DNA of 63,058 nt, counting the filler, from Chiloscyllium plagiosum (taxonomy: Eukaryota): assembly GCF_004010195.1 (NCBI RefSeq). It is 6 parts of 6 records of this genome, joined end to end, with 100 filler letters (N's around TTAATTAATTAA, not from the genome) between each part and the next. Parts side by side here need not be neighbours in the genome. Positions count along the whole stretch, not along the records: positions 58,213 to 61,292 come from NW_025188020.1; 5 more parts are not named here. One strand, given 5' to 3'. Below are positions 26,551 to 63,058 of the stretch, piece after piece; position 1 is the first letter of the stretch, and the number at the start of each line of letters is the position of its first letter. The notes beneath the pieces are model-generated. The model did no database searches and was not told the origin of the DNA. It was given only the letters and a program-made list of their open reading frames with translations. The translations under genes were made by a program, and so were the position numbers.

Positions 26551-27711
26551 ATATGATGACAAAACGTAAAGCTCGGAGTCTGACGAAGTCACAGGCGGTA
26601 AAGGGAAGTTGTGAACAGAGCTATGATGCAATATGCACAGGTTGACATGGGTAAGTTGAGAGTTCAGTGGTGAAGGTCTAAGGTCATGTCTGAGGGAGTG
26701 GCGTCCGGTCAGGGATTGTCAAAATTCTGGTGCCAGGGCCAGGTTCACCACGGACCAGGTGCAGGGTGGCAGGAGTGGAATTGAGTGAAAGGAATCGAGA
26801 TTACATTCTCGTCCATAATATGGATTGTCTTGAATGTGTGTTATGTCTTGTGATGGGAATCCTGTCTTCCAAGGGTGAATGAGTGTGTCACAGAGTAAGG
26901 GTTGTCAAAGTGAATGGAAATTGACGTCGAGACAGAAAGTCAGAGCAGTGATTAATCTGACAGATTAGAGTTTTGCAATAAACTGCGTGTCAGTTTGATA
27001 GTTATTGAAGTTAAAGTGTATTTGTTCATTTCTCGAATCATTTATACATAAATGCTCAGTTCAGCTAGCTGTCACACTCCAAAGTCTCTGAAACTTTAAT
27101 GGTCCTATTTGTTTCAGAGACCTCCAGAATTCAGATAATTGTCAAGTCGATCAATGAGCTTCCAGGCAATTAGCATGATATCAGCTTTGACAGATATTCT
27201 CTCAGTCCCAGTGCTCTGCAACTGCCTTATTTCCAGAGAGCGGATTCTGGCTGACATTGATAAGCTGGGAAGGTACAATGGACTCGAAACGTTCACTCTG
27301 GTTTCTCTCCACAGATGCTGCCAGTTGTTGGGTTTCTCCAGCAACTTCGGTTTTCGTTTCCAATTCCAACTTCCACGTTTTCTTGGTTTGTATTTTGTGA
27401 AAACTCTATGCTCGTCACTTGCAATCCAATGAAAGTGTCAGTTGGTGAGAGTTTCAGCAGTTACTCTAAGTCAGATCAGGGTGTTCCTATTTCTTAATTA
27501 TATAGTAATGGTCAAGGTAGAGGGCATGTTTCTTAAGAGGGAACCAATAGATCATGATCAACGACTGATTGGAAACAAAAATAAATTCAAGGTATACTAA
27601 AGATTTTAACAGGAACACACTGGTATACGTTTACAGCTGAGGAAACATTTGGGTAACCAATAAAGTCGAATTAACAGAAACTAACTTGCTCGACTAGTCA
27701 TTCTATCCTTG

Positions 27712-28011
27712 AGACTGCATCTGCCCCCAAACTTTATGGAGTTGTCTTCTCCTGTCAGCAACACAACACTGACGGTTCTGTGATCTTTGGTTGTTTGGCC
27801 ATGGACAATAACACTGACGTTACCAAGGTGACCTGGAAGAAAGGTGGGGTGCCAATCACGACTGCAGTGAAGACTTATCCATCCTTGAGGAACAACAAGG
27901 GAACTTACATCCTGAGAAGCCAGTTGACCCTGCCTGAGTCAGAGGCAGATTGCAGTAAATTCTCCTGTGAGGTTCAACATAGCGGGTCAAAGCAGAGCAC
28001 TGGAATGCTAT
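27712..28011 (+). pseudogene. IGHM: Shark IgM heavy-chain CH1 exon, probably non-functional orphan
   Basis: (E)TASAPKLYGVVFSCQQHNTDGSVIFGCLAMDNNTDVTKVTWKKGGVPITTAVKTYPSLRNNKGTYILRSQLTLPESEADCSKFSCEVQHSGSKQSTGML matches shark Cmu1. Phase-1 donor GTAAAT at 28012. The expected phase-1 acceptor at 27710-27711 reads TG instead of AG, and the conserved DYSP motif is replaced by DNNT. Confidence 0.85.
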
Positions 28012-28709
28012 GTAAATCTTGTGGGAACTGAGGTGAACAGCACACCTGTGGTTAACATGAATAGGGCATTAGTTATAATACATTTGACATCGTCATAGAG
28101 ATATAGAGTACAGTGAAAGTTCCTGTGGTCCATCCAGTCCACACCTATCAATAACAGCCCCCTAACTATTCCAGTCCAGTATATCCGCAATTGATGCATT
28201 GCTTTGTTTGACTTGACATTTCTTATGTGCATCTGCATATGTCTCACACGTTATGCGGTGCCTAGCCTCTTCAAGACTTACTCACACTGAGCTGCAGATT
28301 CACACACTCTGTGTGATTTTGGTTTCCCCAATATCCTCCTGTCCTTACTGTAAACCTAGGCCCTTGAGACATTGCTCCATCCATTAAGGGGAACGGATTT
28401 GTCCTGTTTACTCTGTATATGTCTACCGTAATTCGAGACATCACAATCATCTTCTCTCTCATTCTTCTCTGCTCCAAGTAAAACCCCAGTTGGGTTCATG
28501 ACATTCCATAAATTAAAAACTTCTAGCCCAGGAAAAGTCCTGGAAAATCTTAATAATGCTGCCTTGTGTGTAATCACATTCCTTCCATAACATGCAGTCC
28601 TATACATCGCACAATGCTTCATGTCTGGCCTAACCAGTGTTTTATTAATTTCCAGTATCATCTCCCAACACCTAATGTAAATGTCTTGGCTCATTAAAGC
28701 AAATACCCG

Positions 28710-28809
28710 NNNNNNNNNNNNNNNNNNNNNNNNNNNNNNNNNNNNNNNNNNNNTTAATTAATTAANNNNNNNNNNNNNNNNNNNNNNNNNNNNNNNNNNN
28801 NNNNNNNNN
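28710..28809. other. Artificial scaffold-joining linker (44 N + TTAATTAATTAA + 44 N)
   Basis: Identical 100-nt structure also at 47953-48052, 56361-56460, 58113-58212 and 61293-61392. The 12-mer gives stops in all six frames. Confidence 0.98.
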
Positions 28810-30303: not shown

Positions 30304-31058
30304 ACGCGCTCTGATTCAACACAAGGAATTCCGTGTTGAAAATCGAGCTTGAGATCACAAATTACAAGGCTATAATCATGAACTAGGAGGTGTTATTTGA
30401 TTAAATATTTTCTTTCCTGATTCTCAGGCAGATATCAACCATTGATCATTATCATATTCCAATAAGTGTTCCGAGGCGGAAGATGAAGCGTTCTTCCTCC
30501 AGGCGTCTGGTGGTGACGGAGCGGCAGTGAAGGAGCCCAGGACCTCCATGTCCTCCAGAATGGTGGGTGGGGGAGTTGAAATGTTGGGCCACAGGGCGGT
30601 GTGGTTGATGTCACCTAGACAGGGGACGAAACGTCTGCAACACAAATTCTCAGCTCGGCGAACAGAACCACGACAGAGAAAAACAGTGAAACAAAGGGAG
30701 GAATTTCCCTCCCCTGAGCTTCATTCATCTTCCCAACATCAAAGATCAGTGTAAATGGAAAATATAAATCAATCGTATGGTCACGAGTCTCCCCTTGAAG
30801 CACTGACTGAGCAGAATCTGGCCCCATTGGTAATCACAGGCCAACCTTTCACGAATATTGGAACTCAGTGTACACTATCATGTTTGTGACAGAATCGGTG
30901 AATCTGATTCAACACAAGGAATTCCGTGTTGAAAATCGAGCTTGAGATCACAAATTACAAGGCAATAATCATGAAATAGGAGGTGTTATTTGATTAAATA
31001 TTTTCTTTCCTGATTCTCAGGCAGATATCAACCATTGATCATTATCATATTCCAATAG

Positions 31059-31376
31059 GTTCACATCAATTAACTGGGCCCAAGGAGGTTCGTGGAGAAG
31101 TTGGAGGTTCAGTCACTGTCGACTGTCGCTATGATCAGAAATACAAGGAGCATAAGAAACAATGGTGTAAGGGTCGTGTCTTCATTACCTGTTCTGTTAT
31201 TGTTTCGACTGATAATCCACAAAAACAAGGAGTATCATTGACCGATAACAAAACACGCGGGATATTTTCAGTAACCATGGATAACCTGAAGAAGAGTGAT
31301 GAAGGATTATACTGGTGTGAGATAGAAGTAGTTTTGCTAAACATAAGGGATTCCGTCAAATTAGAAGTTTTTGAAG
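31059..31376 (+). CDS. Ig V-set exon of a CD300/pIgR/FCAMR-family (CMRF35-like) receptor
   Basis: Acceptor TTCCAATAG, donor G|GTAAGA, 318 nt, phase 1/1, no stops: (G)SHQLTGPKEVRGEVGGSVTVDCRYDQKYKEHKKQWCKGRVFITCSVIVSTDNPQKQGVSLTDNKTRGIFSVTMDNLKKSDEGLYWCEIEVVLLNIRDSVKLEVFE. Has CxY, KxWC..C (extra C-C' cysteine pair) and DxGxYWC. Leader exon not identified. Confidence 0.92.
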
Positions 31377-32268
31377 GTAAGATGATCATGTCTTTCTACT
31401 CTGTCTACCCTGCCCAAGATTAAATATTTGAAATGAGAGATAACCCTAGCTCTGCTCTGACAGTGACCCCCTGACAAATCCTGAGCTCCCCACAGGGGTG
31501 GTCACTCTTTTACTGAAAATGCCTGAAATCTGGGAATTCTCTCCATGGGGACGGGCACCGGGAGAATGTCACACTATGTACAGCACACAGCCCTGCCAAA
31601 TCCCCGATGGCTCACCAGCCTTTCCTTCCATTTCTCCCGGGTGACCATGGCTCCAGTGTGGAGTCTGGCTCAGTTAGTACCCTCGCGACAGCTCTGCACA
31701 CAGCAGGACAGAGGGTGGTCTTTTACCCACAAAGGCCATTGGGTCATTGACTTATTGAAAAGGATGGATCACGATTAGTGATGGCCATTCGTGTGTCTGC
31801 AAGGAGAGTTAGAATATAAAACCCGAGCCTGAAGCAGCCCCAATAGCAAGGTCAACTATTGCTGCAGAGATATGGTGGTGAGGGGTGCCTCCATACGTCT
31901 CAGAGTGACTGTAATGGAGTGTCCACTACAAGGCACTGGTGTTTATCTCAGTGGGTTCCCTACAACACTTCACTCCTGATGTCATATGATTTTGTATGGA
32001 TTGTGATAACCCAAACTTGATCATGTTGTTAGTTTAAATATCTACTGGTTACTCAGGATCCTGCTGTGGTAATATCCCACAGTAATGGGAAATTATTGAT
32101 CTTCCTTCCTGTCACCTTGCCTATGATTTTTTAAAACTCTCCACCTCCCATCCCAAATCCAGAAGTCTCAAAAGCAAACCCATTCTAATCATGCCAATTC
32201 CTGTGGTGTCACTGTCTGATCTATTTATATTATTAATATCATTTGTCTTCAGTTTGAGTTTGGGTTTT

Positions 32269-47952: not shown

Positions 47953-48589
47953 NNNNNNNNNNNNNNNNNNNNNNNNNNNNNNNNNNNNNNNNNNNNTTAA
48001 TTAATTAANNNNNNNNNNNNNNNNNNNNNNNNNNNNNNNNNNNNNNNNNNNNTCAGGTCCTTGGGATTTATTGACCTTTATATGATCTTTAGCATCTCCT
48101 CATTTGTATGTGGACTCTTTTCAAGACATCACTATTTTTCGATATTCCCTCACTTTCATGCCCTTCTCCACAATAAATACTGACCTGAAATGTTTGTTTA
48201 GGATCTCACCCATCTCCTGTGTCATACCAAAATACAGCACTCACATTTATCTGAATTAAACTCCATCTGCCATTCCTCAGCCCACTGGCTCAGTTGGTCA
48301 AGATCCCATTGTACTCTTACACAGCCTTCTTCACTGGCCACGATGCCACCTGAAACTTCACCTGAACACACTCTCACAACTCTGGCCCCTCTCTGCCTGT
48401 TACACAGCTACTACCCCAATCTATATTCAGAAATTAAATCCCCCCTTTCCCCCACATTAAAACCACTCTATCTCACTCTCAGGTCTCTGTAAATTTCTTG
48501 CATTTGTATTCCTTCACATCCTTCCCACTGGGTGGTGACTTATTGACTGCACTGAGAATTCTGTGGACCTTGGTGTTCCTCTCTGATAT

Positions 48590-53209: not shown

Positions 53210-53538
53210 GCCGTGAGAACTCCCAGCTCAAGCTGACCCTGCTGCCCCCTTCCCCGGAGCAGGTCAATGCCAAGGGCACTGCCACTCTGGTGTGCCTTGC
53301 CAATCACTTCTACCCCGATGAGCTGGAGGTGCAGTGGAAGAAGGATGGTGCAGTCATTTCGGACGGGGTTCAGACCAGCAACTACCTGCGAGCTTCGGAC
53401 AGCACCTACAGTGTCAGCAGCCTGCTGACCCTCTCTGGGTCTGACTGGGAGTCCAACGCTCGGTTCTCCTGTGCCCTCACCCGCGTGACCCTCCCCTCTC
53501 CCCTCAGCAAGAGCATCAGGAGATCAGAATGTGTGTAG
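53210..53538 (+). CDS. IGKC: Ig light-chain kappa (shark NS4/type III) constant exon
   Basis: Acceptor TTTCTCTTGTCTTCCAG, phase 1. RENSQLKLTLLPPSPEQVNAKGTATLVCLANHFYPDELEVQWKKDGAVISDGVQTSNYLRASDSTYSVSSLLTLSGSDWESNARFSCALTRVTLPSPLSKSIRRSECV*, with penultimate Cys for heavy-chain linkage. Confidence 0.92.
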
Positions 53539-56318: not shown

Positions 56319-57025
56319 AGGAGAAAATGAGGACTGCAGATGCTGGAGATCAGAGCTAAANNNNNNNNNNNNNNNNNNNNNNNNNNNNNNNNNNNNNNNN
56401 NNNNTTAATTAATTAANNNNNNNNNNNNNNNNNNNNNNNNNNNNNNNNNNNNNNNNNNNNTGTCGATTCTCTTTGGTGTGAAAGTGAAGATACACTCTGT
56501 CAACTCATGCGCTGGCGCAAGATCCCTGGCAGTTCTCCAGAAAGAAAGGTTACATTCAAACTGTTCTGCACTATTTACGATTGGTATGTTCCAATCAAAT
56601 TTAATTTTAAAGTGTCTTAAATTTACATTTCCAATTGGTGTAATTTGGCAGTTTAAAACTGACATGAATTTTGTTAGAATCTCCAATCGGGGGAATCAAA
56701 AACACCAAGTTCAAAACTCGTGCCCTACCCTTGACATAAAATGGACATTGTCAGATTTTGTCGCAGAGGGATTTAGGATGGATAAGGTACTTGGCAGAAT
56801 CCTGCAATGAGTGAGCTTTACTCTATCTCTGACCCAGGGTGTATCATGGCAGGGAACATTAACTACACAAGACACTTGTTATAGACCTGTTAATAATCCA
56901 CTTTAACTACACAGATGGAATGTAAGTCAGAGTGAGAAACAACTAATTCAGTATTTAACTCACAGCTGGAGGAAACAAAACACTTCATTACTTCTGTTGA
57001 ACTATTAAATGCAACTTTGAGATTT

Positions 57026-57407
57026 TTATTGACATGAATTAACAGTGTCCATCAGTGCAAGTGAAATGTTTACAAAACTCGGTTTACCGCTGGATTTATC
57101 GACTGTTCTGTTGATGATCTTCAATGGAATCACTTCATGCCCCACCACACAGGAGTAAGAAGCACCGCTGGCCCACTCCTCCGCTGTAATGGATAACAGG
57201 CTGTAGATGAAGAAGGAGGTGTTGTCACTCTCCCCCATCACCTCGGTGTTCTTGTAGTTACTGGAATTCACCGGTTTGTCCACTTGACGAAGATCTCTCG
57301 GGGGAAGAAACCTCTCACTGAACAGGTGAGGGAGAGAAACCTCTGAGCGGAGATTTCTTCTGTTGGTGGCAGGAGGACCGACACTGATGGCTCCAGCGGA
57401 TTAATCA
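57026..57407 (-). pseudogene. IGHM: Shark IgM CH4 plus secretory tailpiece exon, frameshifted
   Basis: [42 protein letters not shown], then a frame change, then [84 protein letters not shown]. Acceptor TTCTGCAG. Internal membrane-form donor G|GTAAAC at 57087. AATAAA overlaps the stop (57025-57030). Confidence 0.92.
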
Positions 57408-57862
57408 CTGCAGAATATTGGAGACAAATATAAATCAACCAAAAAAATCCTGAACCAGTATCACAATTTCACTAAATATTAAAATACGCCATGTTTAATT
57501 TGGGATTTATTCACTTTCGCTTTTTAAAGGAGCAGTATGGTACAAATACTGTTCAGTAAAAAAAGGAAAGTTTACTGTGAAAGTTGCCTCCATGTTTCCA
57601 GTGCACAACATGGGCATTCTGTCCAATTGTCATTGCTGATGGTGGCGTCACAACTCAGGCTTCTTCCCACTATATATGACTTAATCAGAATACAATATCC
57701 TTTGGTCCATCTTTTTCTTAATCAGCTACTTAGCTCTCCTGCCTTCAGATGCATCATTAATGCTCCCAACGGTGTTTGTTCATTCCCAATCAAAGCCTGA
57801 CATTGATGTAACTTGATCTGGATTACACATGGGATGCTTTGTGCTTTAATCTCACCGCTCAC

Positions 57863-58112
57863 CTTTCTCCTTGTGGATGGAGTGTCTCAGTGGAGTCGGT
57901 AGATTCTGATGGTACACCACACATTCAAAAGTAACGCCACTCAGCCAGGCTTCAGTAGAAATGTCTAATTTGCTGATCACGCTGTCGGGATTCTGTCCAG
58001 GCTGCTCAGCAATCTCTGATTTCAGAGGCTTCTTTTCTTGTCTCCAGGTGACGTTGACTCCAGAAGGAAGATTGGACATAACGCAGGTTAACGTCACCGT
58101 CGCCTCCAGTAA
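57863..58112 (-). CDS. IGHM: Shark IgM CH3 exon (5'-truncated by scaffold end; same gene as the frameshifted CH4)
   Basis: [83 protein letters not shown], phase-1 donor G|GTGAGC. Confidence 0.88.
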
Positions 58113-58250
58113 NNNNNNNNNNNNNNNNNNNNNNNNNNNNNNNNNNNNNNNNNNNNTTAATTAATTAANNNNNNNNNNNNNNNNNNNNNNNNNNNNNNNN
58201 NNNNNNNNNNNNTCTCTCTCAATCTCCCTCTCTCTCTCTCTCTCTCTCAG

Positions 58251-58571
58251 CTTCTGTCTCCCTCCGACATCCGTCTCTCCGAGTGATCCCTCCATCTATC
58301 CGGGAGATGGTGACCAAGCGGACTGCGACTCTGCACTGCGTAGCCACCCTGTTCACCCCTGAGCACATCACCTTCCTCTGGAAGGCTCAGGGACTGGAGA
58401 TTTCCGGGTCTTCCCGGATCCTGGTACCAACTGCCAATGAGGATGGTAGCTACAGTGCCCGGAGTGAGTTAACGTTGGCACGGGAGGACTGGGAGGCAGG
58501 GACCAGCTACACCTGTCAGCTTGCAAATGCACAGTCCGATCCCATAAGCACCTCTCTTCATGTGGAAGACG
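58251..58571 (+). CDS. Intact internal Ig C1-set exon of uncertain gene identity
   Basis: (CT)n-CAG acceptor, donor G|GTGAGT, 321 nt, phase 1/1: (A)SVSLRHPSLRVIPPSIREMVTKRTATLHCVATLFTPEHITFLWKAQGLEISGSSRILVPTANEDGSYSARSELTLAREDWEAGTSYTCQLANAQSDPISTSLHVED. Has ATLxC, FxP, W, NxDGSYS and DW..G.SYTC motifs. Confidence 0.88.
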
Positions 58572-59588
58572 GTGAGTCTGGGGCAATGTGGTGGGGGGTG
58601 GGCCAATCTGGAGGGAGGGTATTGGTTGGGAGAGTGGGTTAGGGTCTCAACGGAGGTTATGGGATGGGGCAGCANNNNNNNNNNNNNNNNNNNNNNNNNN
58701 NNNNNNNNNNNNNNNNNNNNNNNNNNNNNNNNNNNNNNNNNNNNNNNNNNNNNNNNNNNNNNNNNNNNNNNNNNNNNNNNNNNNNNNNNNNNNNNNNNNN
58801 NNNNNNNNNNNNNNNNNNNNNNNNNNNNNNNNNNNNNNNNNNNNNNNNNNNNNNNNNNNNNNNNNNNNNNNNNNNNNNNNNNNNNNNNNNNNNNNNNNNN
58901 NNNNNNNNNNNNNNNNNNNNNNNNNNNNNNNNNNNNNNNNNNNNNNNNNNNNNNNNNNNNNNNNNNNNNNNNNNNNNNNNNNNNNNNNNNNNNNNNNNNN
59001 NNNNNNNNNNNNNNNNNNNNNNNNNNNNNNNNNNNNNNNNNNNNNNNNNNNNNNNNNNNNNNNNNNNNNNNNNNNNNNNNNNNNNNNNNNNNNNNNNNNN
59101 NNNNNNNNNNNNNNNNNNNNNNNNNNNNNNNNNNNNNNNNNNNNNNNNNNNNNNNNNNNNNNNNNNNNNNNNNNNNNNNNNNNNNNNNNNNNNNNNNNNN
59201 NNNNNNNNNNNNNNNNNNNNNNNNNNNNNNNNNNNNNNNNNNNNNNNNNNNNNNNNNNNNNNNNNNNNNNNNNNNNNNNNNNNNNNNNNNNNNNNNNNNN
59301 NNNNNNNNNNNNNNNNNNNNNNNNNNNNNNNNNNNNNNNNNNNNNNNNNNNNNNNNNNNNNNNNNNNNNNNNNNNNNNNNNNNNNNNNNNNNNNNNNNNN
59401 NNNNNNNNNNNNNNNNNNNNNNNNNNNNNNNNNNNNNNNNNNNNNNNNNNNNNNNNNNNNNNNNNNNNNNNNNNNNNNNNNNNNNNNNNNNNNNNNNNNN
59501 NNNNNNNNNNNNNNNNNNNNNNNNNNNNNNNNNNNNNNNNNNNNNNNNNNNNNNNNNNNNNNNNNNNNNNNNNNNNNNNNNNNNNNNN

Positions 59589-59880
59589 GCGCTGTCTCCC
59601 CCACTCCCCCACTCACTCTCCCACTCCCTCAATTCCCCCTCATTGCCCCCTCTCTCCCTCACTCACCCTCTCACTCACACACTCATCCTCTCACTCAATC
59701 TCCCACGCCCTGACTCATTCTCCCACTCCCTCACTCACGTCCTCACGCACACCCTCGCTCCCTCACTCCCTCCCTCACTCACTCACTCCTTCACTCATGC
59801 CTGCACTCCCTCCCTCCCTGACTCAGTCGCGCACTCACTCACTCCCACTCCTTCCCTCTGCCATCCCTCTTCCTGACACA
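59589..59880. repeat. (CACT/CCCT)n low-complexity tract
   Basis: Pyrimidine-rich CTCA/CTCC repeats. Confidence 0.85.
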
Positions 59881-59999
59881 GTCTGAGCCAAACACCCTTC
59901 ACATTCCCCCCCAATGGAGTTGCACTCTCCCTGCTCCATTCCCAGTTTCCCCTCCATCCCAAATTCCCAGCTCTTCACCCCTCAGCCAGCATCTTCCCA

Positions 60000-61135
60000 G
60001 TTAGATACACATTCCGAGTAATGTGCACCGTTCTCCTCTCGCTATCGCTTGGTCAGACCCACAAAGTGAACAGCGTGCACAGTTCCAATTTAACTATCCC
60101 GCAGTCAGATCAACATTCAGAGCACCGTGCACAGTTCCCATCTCTGTATCCCTCGGTCAGACCCACACTCGGAGCACCGTGCACAGTTCCCACCTCCCTA
60201 TCCCTCGGTCAGACTCACACTCAGAGCACCGTGCACAGTTCCCATCTCCCTATCCCTCGGTCAGACTCACACTCAGAGCACCGTGCACAGTTCCCATCTC
60301 CGTATCCCTCGGTCAGATCCACACTCGGAGCACCGTGCACAGTTCCCCATCTCCGTATCCCTCGGTCAGACCCACACTCAGAGCACCGTGCACAGTTCCC
60401 ATCTCCGTATCTCTCGGTCAGACCCACACTCAGAGCACCGTGCACAGTTCGCATCTCTGTATTCCTCGGTCAGACCCACACTCAGAGCACAGTGCACAGT
60501 TCCCATCTCCGTATCCCTCGGTCAGACCCACACTCAGAGCACCATGCACAGTTCCCATCTCCCTATCCCTCGGTCAGACCCACACTCAGAGCACCGTGCA
60601 CAGTTCCCATCTACGTATCCCTCGGTCAGACCCACACTCGGAGCGCTGTGCAGTGTTCCCGTATCTGTATCCCTCAGTCAGACCCACACTCAGAGCGCCA
60701 TGCACAGTGTCTGTCTCCGTATCTCTCGGTCAGACCAACATTCGGAGCTCAGTGGACCATTCCTGTCTTCATTTCCCTCAATCTGACACGCACTCGGAGC
60801 ACCATGTAGCGTTCCCGTCTCACTATCCCTCGGTCAGACCCACAAAGAGAGCACCCACAGTTCCAATTTAACTATCCCTCAGTCAGACCCAAACTCGGAG
60901 CACAGTGCATAGTTCCCATCTCCGTAACCTTCGGTTAGACCCACACTTGGAATGCCGTGCACAATTCCCACCTCCCTATTCCTGGGTCAGACCCGCACTC
61001 GGAGCACCGTGCACTGTTCCTGTCTCCATATCCTCAGTCAGACCCACACTTGGAGCACCGTGCACAGTTTCCACCTTCATATCCCTTGGTCAGACCCAGA
61101 CTGGGAGCATCATGCACAGTTCCTGTATCAGCACC
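60000..61135. repeat. 52-bp minisatellite (~21 copies)
   Basis: Unit CTCGGTCAGACCCACACTCAGAGCACCGTGCACAGTTCCCATCTCCGTATCC. Homogeneous in the centre, degenerate at the edges. Confidence 0.96.
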
Positions 61136-61164
61136 TTTCGCTGACACCCACACTGGGAGAATCA

Positions 61165-61292
61165 GGCTCTCTCTGGCTCTCTGTCTCTGTGTGTGTGGGT
61201 GTCTCTCTCTCTCTCTGGCTCTCTCTACCATTCTCTCTCTCTATCTCTTCCTCCCTGTATCTCTACCTGTCTCTCAATTTCTCTGTCTATCT
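61165..61292. repeat. (CT)n microsatellite
   Basis: TCTC-rich tract at the scaffold end. Confidence 0.85.
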
Positions 61293-61801
61293 NNNNNNNN
61301 NNNNNNNNNNNNNNNNNNNNNNNNNNNNNNNNNNNNTTAATTAATTAANNNNNNNNNNNNNNNNNNNNNNNNNNNNNNNNNNNNNNNNNNNNACCAATAT
61401 CACAATTTCACTAAATATTAAAATACACCATGTTTAATTTAGGATTTATTCACTTTCGTGTTTTAAAGGAGCAGTATGGTACACATACTGTTCAGTAAAA
61501 AAAGGAAAGTTTAATGTGAAAGTTGTCTCCATGTTTCCAGTTCACAACAAGGGCATTCTGTCCAATTGTCATTGCTGATGGTGACGTCACAACCCAGGCT
61601 TCTTCCCACCTTATCTGACTTAATCAGAATACAATATCCTTTGGTCCATCTTTTTCTTAATCAGCTACTTAGCTATCCTTCCTTCAGATGCATCAATAAT
61701 GCTCCCACTGGTGTTTGTTCATTCCCAATCAAAGCCTGCCATTGATGTAACTGGATCTGGATTACACATGGGATGCTTTGTGTTTTAATCTCACCGCTCA
61801 C

Positions 61802-62109
61802 CTTTCTCCTTGTGGATGGAGTCTCTCAGCGGAGTCGGTAGATTCTGATGGTAAGCCACACAGGCAAAAGTAAAGCCACTCGGCCAGGCTTCAGGAGAAA
61901 TGTCTAATTTGCTGATCACGCTTTCGGGATTCTGTCCAGGCTGCTCAGCAATCTCTGATTTCAGAGGCTTCTTTTCTTGTCTCCAGGTCACGTTGACTCC
62001 AGAAGGAAGATTGGACACAACGCAGGTTAACGTCACCGTCGCCTCCAGTAAGACTTGTTCTCCTGGCGGTGGGAGGAGTTTAACGGTGTTGGGTGGCACT
62101 CGGTATCTT
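61802..62109 (-). pseudogene. IGHM: Second shark IgM CH3 exon, probably frameshifted
   Basis: Acceptor TTGTTTCATAG, donor G|GTGAGC. Length 308 nt is not a multiple of 3. The phase-1 frame reads DTECHP, while the domain frame [59 protein letters not shown] is offset by 1 nt. Confidence 0.8.
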
Positions 62110-63058
62110 CTATGAAACAAAAATCAAAGTCAATGAAAAATGCCCCTTTCTGATACAAACAGCCAATCTTCAGATTCCTCCTTCACAGGGTGAAGACACC
62201 ACCTTCAAAATGGCAACTCCAACTATTCTGAAACGATGCTGACTATTGTTGATGTATTTTGATCTGTGAAAGCATTTGTGATTACCTATAACATACCCTG
62301 TGTAATTATTCCGAAAGAACACTGGCTTTGTAACAAGCGAAACCTGTGAAAAATGTAAAATCATCGAAGATACCATCATGTAACCCATGGAATTACCTTT
62401 CTTTCGGAATTTGTCTCTCACTTAAGACCATCTATTGATACTTGTGACAAGAGTAATCTGAATATAATGAGTTCATTTCCATGTTCATAACCCTTAGGTG
62501 CAAGTACTGCTGGTCACGCTGACTGCCAAATCACATCCCAAATTTTGGACAAATTATAATAAATAATAATTATTATCTTTGCAGAGTTCTAAAGTGTTAC
62601 AGGAGCGGTGAACATCCATGGGAATTCTGTTCATTATATTTAACATGATTAAAAATACTTTGCGTTATTGGTGTGATGTAATTCTCTAATTTATGTCATT
62701 GTTCCTCGTCGACTGTGTTTGGAGTAGATCTGAAAACAAGACATTGAGTACAGCAGTGGATATCGTGAAGGACACCCATCTCCTTAAGTCTTTCCCTCCA
62801 TTCAGTAGTTCATAACTGGTCTGTACTTTCACTTTACCAAGCTGCATTTTTTAATCTCTTCATAGAGCAGGGGAAACAACAAACAAACAAAAGCATCTTA
62901 AATTAATCTACAAACGCGATGGAAATGTCACTAATTTTATAGACATCCACTACTCACTGTGTAAACATCGCCACCCCAAACCAGGCTAAATCAGTCTATC
63001 TCGAGTTCCTCATTCATTCATCCCGATTGTAGCAATCCCACCAGAATTTATTCTCCTG

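Follow-up and report, generated by a model that had tools for sequence, protein, structure and literature searches.

A C2-type constant exon in an unplaced record of Chiloscyllium plagiosum is very likely an even-numbered exon of UrIg2

To which gene does an antigen-receptor-like constant exon belong when its record is unplaced and only about 3 kb long? The question is raised by the exon at positions 58251-58571 (+) of a 63,058-nucleotide stretch of DNA from the shark Chiloscyllium plagiosum, the whole of which is referred to here as the window. The window consists of six separate records with five 100-base linkers between them, each made up of 44 N, TTAATTAATTAA and a further 44 N, and apparent gene neighbourhoods within it are artefacts because the records are joined in this way; the record of the exon spans positions 58213-61292 only. 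A preliminary description of the window had left the exon unassigned, as a part of some non-canonical gene or of an undescribed chain, with a non-rearranging gene of the UrIg type as the first candidate. The features of the record, and the linkers of the window, are as follows.

28710-28809, 47953-48052, 56361-56460, 58113-58212 and 61293-61392, no strand: identical 100-base linkers (sequence)
58213-58250, plus strand: end of the upstream intron, a TC-rich pyrimidine tract and a CAG acceptor (sequence; the record starts at 58213)
58251-58571, plus strand: very likely an even-numbered (C2-type) constant exon of UrIg2, phase 1/1, with one C1-set Ig domain (Pfam, PDB match, identities, tree, and contigs running into a C3-type exon)
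58337-58339, plus strand: codon of the B-strand cysteine, Cys29 (translation aligned to 9DMX C2)
58379-58381, plus strand: codon of the C-strand tryptophan, Trp43 (translation aligned to 9DMX C2)
58514-58516, plus strand: codon of the F-strand cysteine, Cys88, followed by Asn92 in place of the usual His (translation; script comparison; legends of figs. S3 and S5 in PMC12227049)
58572-58674, plus strand: GTGAGT donor followed by the first part of the downstream intron, ending at a gap of 914 N (sequence; donor crossed by contigs of run X1)
59589-61292, strand not assigned: remainder of the record, likely intron, with CT-rich repeats and a minisatellite (repeat analysis; exon search)

The exon is 321 bases long and of phase 1/1, with one base split off at either end, and is bordered by a pyrimidine tract and CAG on the 5' side and by GTGAGT on the 3' side (AG/GT ends). 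Its open frame, 58253-58570, translates into 106 residues without a stop; frames counted from base 58251 on either strand have stops inside and were rejected, the coding frame beginning at 58253. The translation matches the Pfam C1-set at E 1.9e-15 (57.4 bits, the cut-off being 21), far above chance level, and Cys29, Trp43 and Cys88 are all present, giving the canonical B-F disulfide and tryptophan pin of one Ig domain per exon; the domain is without an N-glycan sequon. The preliminary description of a clean C1-set exon with canonical phase-1 splice sites is borne out by these data, as are the three absences that it had recorded, namely of the long FG loop, of a terminal Cys with stop and of the usual His behind the second Cys: the translation shows no FG insertion, the splice donor stands where a light chain carries Cys and stop, and Asn92 lies four residues past Cys88, where His is expected. 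In tblastn with the V, C1, C3 and TM parts of UrIg2, no V, C1, C3 or TM exon was found in the record 58213-61292, the hits either falling on the exon itself by cross-matching or being of chance level, with E of at least 0.09. The minisatellite, at 60023-61123 (52-base unit, 21.2 copies, 81% matches), likely lies inside a UrIg2 intron.

Five of the six records bear an Ig-superfamily exon. The C1-set exons at 27708-28013 (+) and 53215-53535 (+), the latter ending in a terminal Cys and then a stop, are ones that we take to be IgM CH1-like and kappa-light-chain-like, respectively. Two near-identical constant exons at 57855-58112 (-) and 61794-62123 (-), located in different records and the first of them cut by a linker, are presumably IgM CH3-like, and a V-set exon at 30998-31420 (+) (Pfam E 5e-15) is assumed to be CD300/pIgR-like. 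Downstream of the CH3-like exon, a constant-domain exon at 57029-57468 (-) matches the C profile as two pieces in different frames and is likely either a pseudo-exon with a frameshift or misassembled. The exons taken to be IgM-like and kappa-like are located across linkers from 58251-58571 and were dropped as linkage evidence for it. In sequence, the exon shares 36/106 residues with the constant domain that we assume to be kappa-like and 21/106 and 25/106 with the two assumed to be IgM-like, that is, 20-34% identity, in agreement with the earlier remark that it is unlike the IgM or kappa domains of the window.

Comparison of the exon domain with 5359 PDB sequences revealed that its best match is 9DMX_A, "UrIg2 V-C1-C2-C3", at residues 235-340. 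The alignment to this nurse shark C2 domain is ungapped across residues 1-106 (146.8 bits, E 1.8e-42), with ~70% identity (74/106, counted by eye), and the best single domain in the other four alignments listed reaches 44.6 bits. A homologue search among longer proteins gave two hits from 119 candidates, XP_072423614.1 of Chiloscyllium punctatum (brownbanded bamboo shark) and XP_048449493.1 of the whale shark; the cluster of the former includes XP_060677870.1 of the epaulette shark, and a query with the whale shark protein gave one further protein only. XP_060677870.1 and XP_048449493.1 are the epaulette and whale shark UrIg2 of Flajnik et al. 2025 (PMC12227049, cited throughout from the sections consulted). 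The exon shares 92, 95, 94, 94 and 94 of 106 residues with the five epaulette C2-type repeats, 96/106 with each of three C. punctatum repeats and 74/103 with the whale shark C2. An accession search for XP_072423614 found no paper naming it, and an unnamed orthologue of this kind is no novelty. Among the best 150 of 859 hits from a search of 1.84 billion representatives, UrIg2-like proteins of white shark and sevengill have ~50% local identity and nothing else exceeds 42%.

The same assignment emerges when constant domains are compared with one another. Within a set of 101, cut from 19 chosen proteins and from the window, the 14 closest to the exon (46-90%) are all UrIg2 C2-type, and the closest outside the UrIg family, among the best 40 listed, has 36% identity. 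A C1-domain phylogeny, proposed as a check in the preliminary description, nests the exon in the UrIg2 C2 repeats, inside a 9-row hemiscylliid clade (SH-aLRT 96) to which the whale shark is next (99); around that clade stand the C2 domains of the whole UrIg family (21 rows, SH-aLRT 95). The tree comprised 92 rows and only 105 columns, was computed in quick mode after two outgroup proteins had been stripped of 10 repeat domains, and held no rows named TCR-beta, IgW or tapasin; several row labels were assigned by us, and row P0035 was identified afterwards as Triakis IgNAR.

Eight public runs, which carry no RNA record and no tissue labels, were compared with positions 58213-58674. By-eye reading showed that contigs of four of the eight (X4, X6, X17 and X18, from four studies and under three organism codes) pass from the end of the exon into the start of a C3-type exon, and the C3-type letters match, also by eye, the opening of that exon type in the epaulette protein. 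In X6, X17 and X18 the match to the window ends at 58566, and in one contig of X4 exactly after 58571. Contigs of X1 cross the donor into the downstream intron, those of X2 and X3 are confined to the exon, and in a sample of ~2/100 of the raw-read run X23 no reads matched. Between the spliced contigs and the window there are 2-9 letter differences, and these contigs may represent sister repeats; they show a phase-1 C2-C3 junction for near-identical copies, from which we infer the same junction for the copy at 58251-58571. The first 17 codons past the donor are those of the read-through tail of the C. punctatum gene model GCC39163.1, a likeness dropped as a diagnostic because the intron begins similarly in an X1 contig whose exon end is another one.

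The exon encodes a C2-type constant domain with ~90% identity to the published repeats of UrIg2, and we are highly confident that it is an even-numbered (C2, C4, C6 and so on) UrIg2 exon of a hemiscylliid. All four sequence-level features examined for UrIg2 membership, namely orthology, exon and Cys-Trp layout, loss of the His and the C3 junction, were found. Its gene is very likely one already known and not a new immune receptor. The high-identity match to a described domain of the UrIg type (87-90% with the epaulette repeats and ~70% with the nurse shark C2), which the preliminary description had itself named as grounds for refutation, replaces the view of the exon as unassigned or as an undescribed chain, and the UrIg-type non-rearranging gene that had been put first among the candidates was well chosen.

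The C2 domains of UrIg, UrIg2 and a third UrIg-like gene fall in one clade (21 rows, SH-aLRT 95), so that the exon might be sought in the MHC-linked secreted UrIg or in the third gene. Identity to UrIg2 is 87-91%, however, against 42% over 97 residues for GCC32115.1 of the third gene and 32% over 84 residues for P0079, which we judge by eye to be UrIg from the match of its V to the sequence in fig. S2 of PMC12227049. Moreover, the C2 domains of UrIg and GCC32115.1 retain Phe-Tyr-Pro or Tyr-Tyr-Pro together with the His, both of which the exon is without. The UrIg C2 was excluded on its low identity and separate tree branch, and either origin is exceedingly improbable, barring transfer of a UrIg2 exon into those genes by gene conversion. 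A divergent C1 domain of the TCR-beta, light-chain, IgW, IgNAR or tapasin/SIRP type, or a part of an undescribed rearranging chain, is in our view just as improbable, since the exon shares with these general C1-set likeness only and the contigs link the C2-type exon to a UrIg2 C3-type exon. An Ig light chain was rejected on the splice donor at the exon end, in place of Cys and stop, and on 34-36% identity, the upper value being the maximum to light-chain-like domains; IgNAR was rejected at no more than 31% to the five domains of the Triakis protein BAJ20185.1. Unnamed multi-C heavy-chain-like proteins, in a comparison that had no protein named IgW, reach at most 33%. The best 60 of the 5359 PDB sequences, the lowest scoring 76.8 bits, contain no TCR or tapasin chain and nothing of the tapasin/SIRP/B7H6 type, of which no named member was in the comparison; with the lack of an FG insertion this led us to reject TCR beta, of which the tree had no named shark sequence. 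The earlier exclusion of TCR-beta, light chain and IgM is upheld.

The protein GCC32115.1 of C. punctatum (P0055) is of interest in its own right. It has 545 residues and, by inspection, the order leader-V-C-C-C-TM, and is neither the UrIg accession GCC18650.1 given in PMC12227049 nor UrIg2, its V having 37-42% identity to both. Scoring of 7996 candidates gave as relatives GCB72098.1 of Scyliorhinus torazame (P0172), XP_038651300.1 of S. canicula (P0171), whose cluster also holds S. torazame GCB72096.1 (P0175), and XP_078087760.1 of Mustelus asterias (P0170). Together with GCC32115.1, these V-C-C(-C)-TM gene models come from one bamboo shark, two catshark species and a houndshark. In a 10-row tree of V and first C, unrooted and computed with no outgroup, they form a clade of their own (99/98) with two subtypes, apart from UrIg and UrIg2, and the locus tags of the two subtypes are consecutive in S. 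torazame. No paper naming the clade was found by name, accession or locus tag in literature that leaves out most subscription papers and the 2023 UrIg paper. Possibly, to judge from these sequences, the clade is an undescribed non-rearranging relative of antigen receptors, and the gene models suggest that its V is unsplit; if the V proved to be of a single exon and the genes to lie in another MHC-paralogous region, they would offer a direct test of the two-paralogue (2R) scheme of antigen-receptor origin.

Within UrIg2, the exon is identical to none of the stored repeats compared and has four residues, Thr35, His38, Ser51 and Ser101, that are private with respect to eight hemiscylliid repeats. 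At the five sites that divide the first repeat from later ones it agrees with the first at three and with the later ones at two, a mosaic that fits gene conversion, which PMC12227049 describes in UrIg2 repeats, and the exon may be either C2 or a later repeat. At residue 38, contigs of five runs (X1, X2, X6, X17 and X18) have Pro, and those of X4 and part of X3 have His as in the window; His38 is therefore not peculiar to this assembly. The mosaic, the private residues and the Pro in most contigs, in a 3 kb record that is unplaced, might also be read as marks of a second, recently duplicated UrIg2 copy, of which the three UrIg2 gene models in stingray (PMC12227049) would be a parallel, or of a repeat, orphaned or pseudogenic, that lies outside the expressed gene, working alike or not at all. 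Yet the frame is open and the splice sites intact, differences of ~10% are typical between sister repeats and between species, the His38 codon recurs in X4 and in part of X3, and near-identical tandem repeats account for a fragmented assembly without a second gene, making such a copy unlikely in our view. A similarly low probability is given to a bamboo-shark-specific second UrIg2 gene, or a conversion mosaic of first and later repeats with an altered BC loop (Thr35, His38); were this the case, UrIg2 stalk domains would diversify within a species and change what they bind. Read as an even-numbered repeat of the known gene, the exon contributes only one further repeat, from a family that PMC12227049 had already covered with epaulette and gray bamboo shark, and alters nothing.

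At the position of the usual His past the second Cys, script comparison revealed Asn in all nine orectolobiform UrIg2 C2-type domains, and five C2-type repeats, three from white shark and two from sevengill, keep the His together with Phe-Tyr-Pro. From this distribution, loss of the His in C2-type domains appears to be specific to a lineage. The legend of fig. S5 in PMC12227049 places the cis-Pro/His pair in UrIg2 C1 and C3 and notes its absence from C2, and the same paper finds UrIg2 C2 structurally like TCR C-beta, IgM C-mu4 and IgNAR C3; the TCR-beta look of the exon is explained by the first of these resemblances. The UrIg2-like proteins of Heptranchias perlo (XP_067837950.1, P0008) and white shark (XP_041031359.1, P0007) have two distinct C2-class domains each, the sevengill protein also having an extra C1-like domain, and hemiscylliid UrIg2 has one C2 class only; the repeated class has kept Phe-Tyr-Pro and His in white shark and sevengill and lost both in orectolobiforms.

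UrIg2 is described in PMC12227049 as a transmembrane protein with a single-exon VJ and a split leader, with nine (nurse shark) or 11 (epaulette) C domains, linked to IgM/IgW/IgNAR, TCR-alpha/delta and PSMB5, and is proposed there as the nearest living relative of the gene into which the RAG transposon inserted. The C. punctatum UrIg2 model ends with a hydrophobic stretch. In the crystal, nurse shark V-C1-C2-C3 is a homodimer with disulfide links through V and C1, and its C2-C3 part is paired in the manner of an IgG Fc, with C2-C2 contact nearly nil; a straight ectodomain would, according to the model, measure ~335 A, and expression peaks in gill, followed by liver, the protein not being made by lymphocytes (PMC12227049). 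On the basis of this structure each C2-C3 pair forms an Fc-like unit in the homodimer, and the domain encoded by the exon is likely a structural piece of a long membrane-anchored stalk that would keep an invariant, germline-encoded V dimer off the surface of non-lymphoid cells. The putative role of the whole protein would be innate recognition or cell-to-cell adhesion in gill and liver, partly following the authors' speculation, for which we judge the chances to be about evenly balanced; the authors themselves suggest homophilic adhesion only, and the sections consulted of PMC12227049 give no UrIg2 ligand.

The closest known systems are the C2/C4/C6-type repeats of UrIg2 in epaulette shark (XP_060677870.1) and brownbanded bamboo shark (XP_072423614.1), which align ungapped at 87-91% and have the same boundaries, the Asn after the second Cys and the C3 junction, and from which the exon differs by its four private residues and its mixed first- and later-repeat sites. 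The nurse shark UrIg2 C2 (9DMX; PMC12227049), ~70% identical without gaps, shares the Cys/Trp/Cys pattern and the lack of a His partner for the BC-loop Pro, but carries an N-glycan site near the B strand, whereas the exon domain has no sequon. UrIg, the MHC-linked and secreted V-C1-C2-C3 protein (Flajnik et al. 2023, as given in PMC12227049 and PMC10751288), is a paralogue whose C2 domains cluster with those of UrIg2; in contrast to the exon, to which it is ~32% identical, it keeps the His, and it is secreted with a single C2-C3 unit. Lastly, the CH2 domain of the IgG Fc is a functional analogue, the nurse shark C2-C3 being paired as CH2-CH3 is, with the BC-loop Pro in trans and C2 domains that touch each other little, although UrIg2 differs from IgG in having no light chain, rearranged V or interdomain glycan, in its repeated units and in not being made by lymphocytes (PMC12227049).
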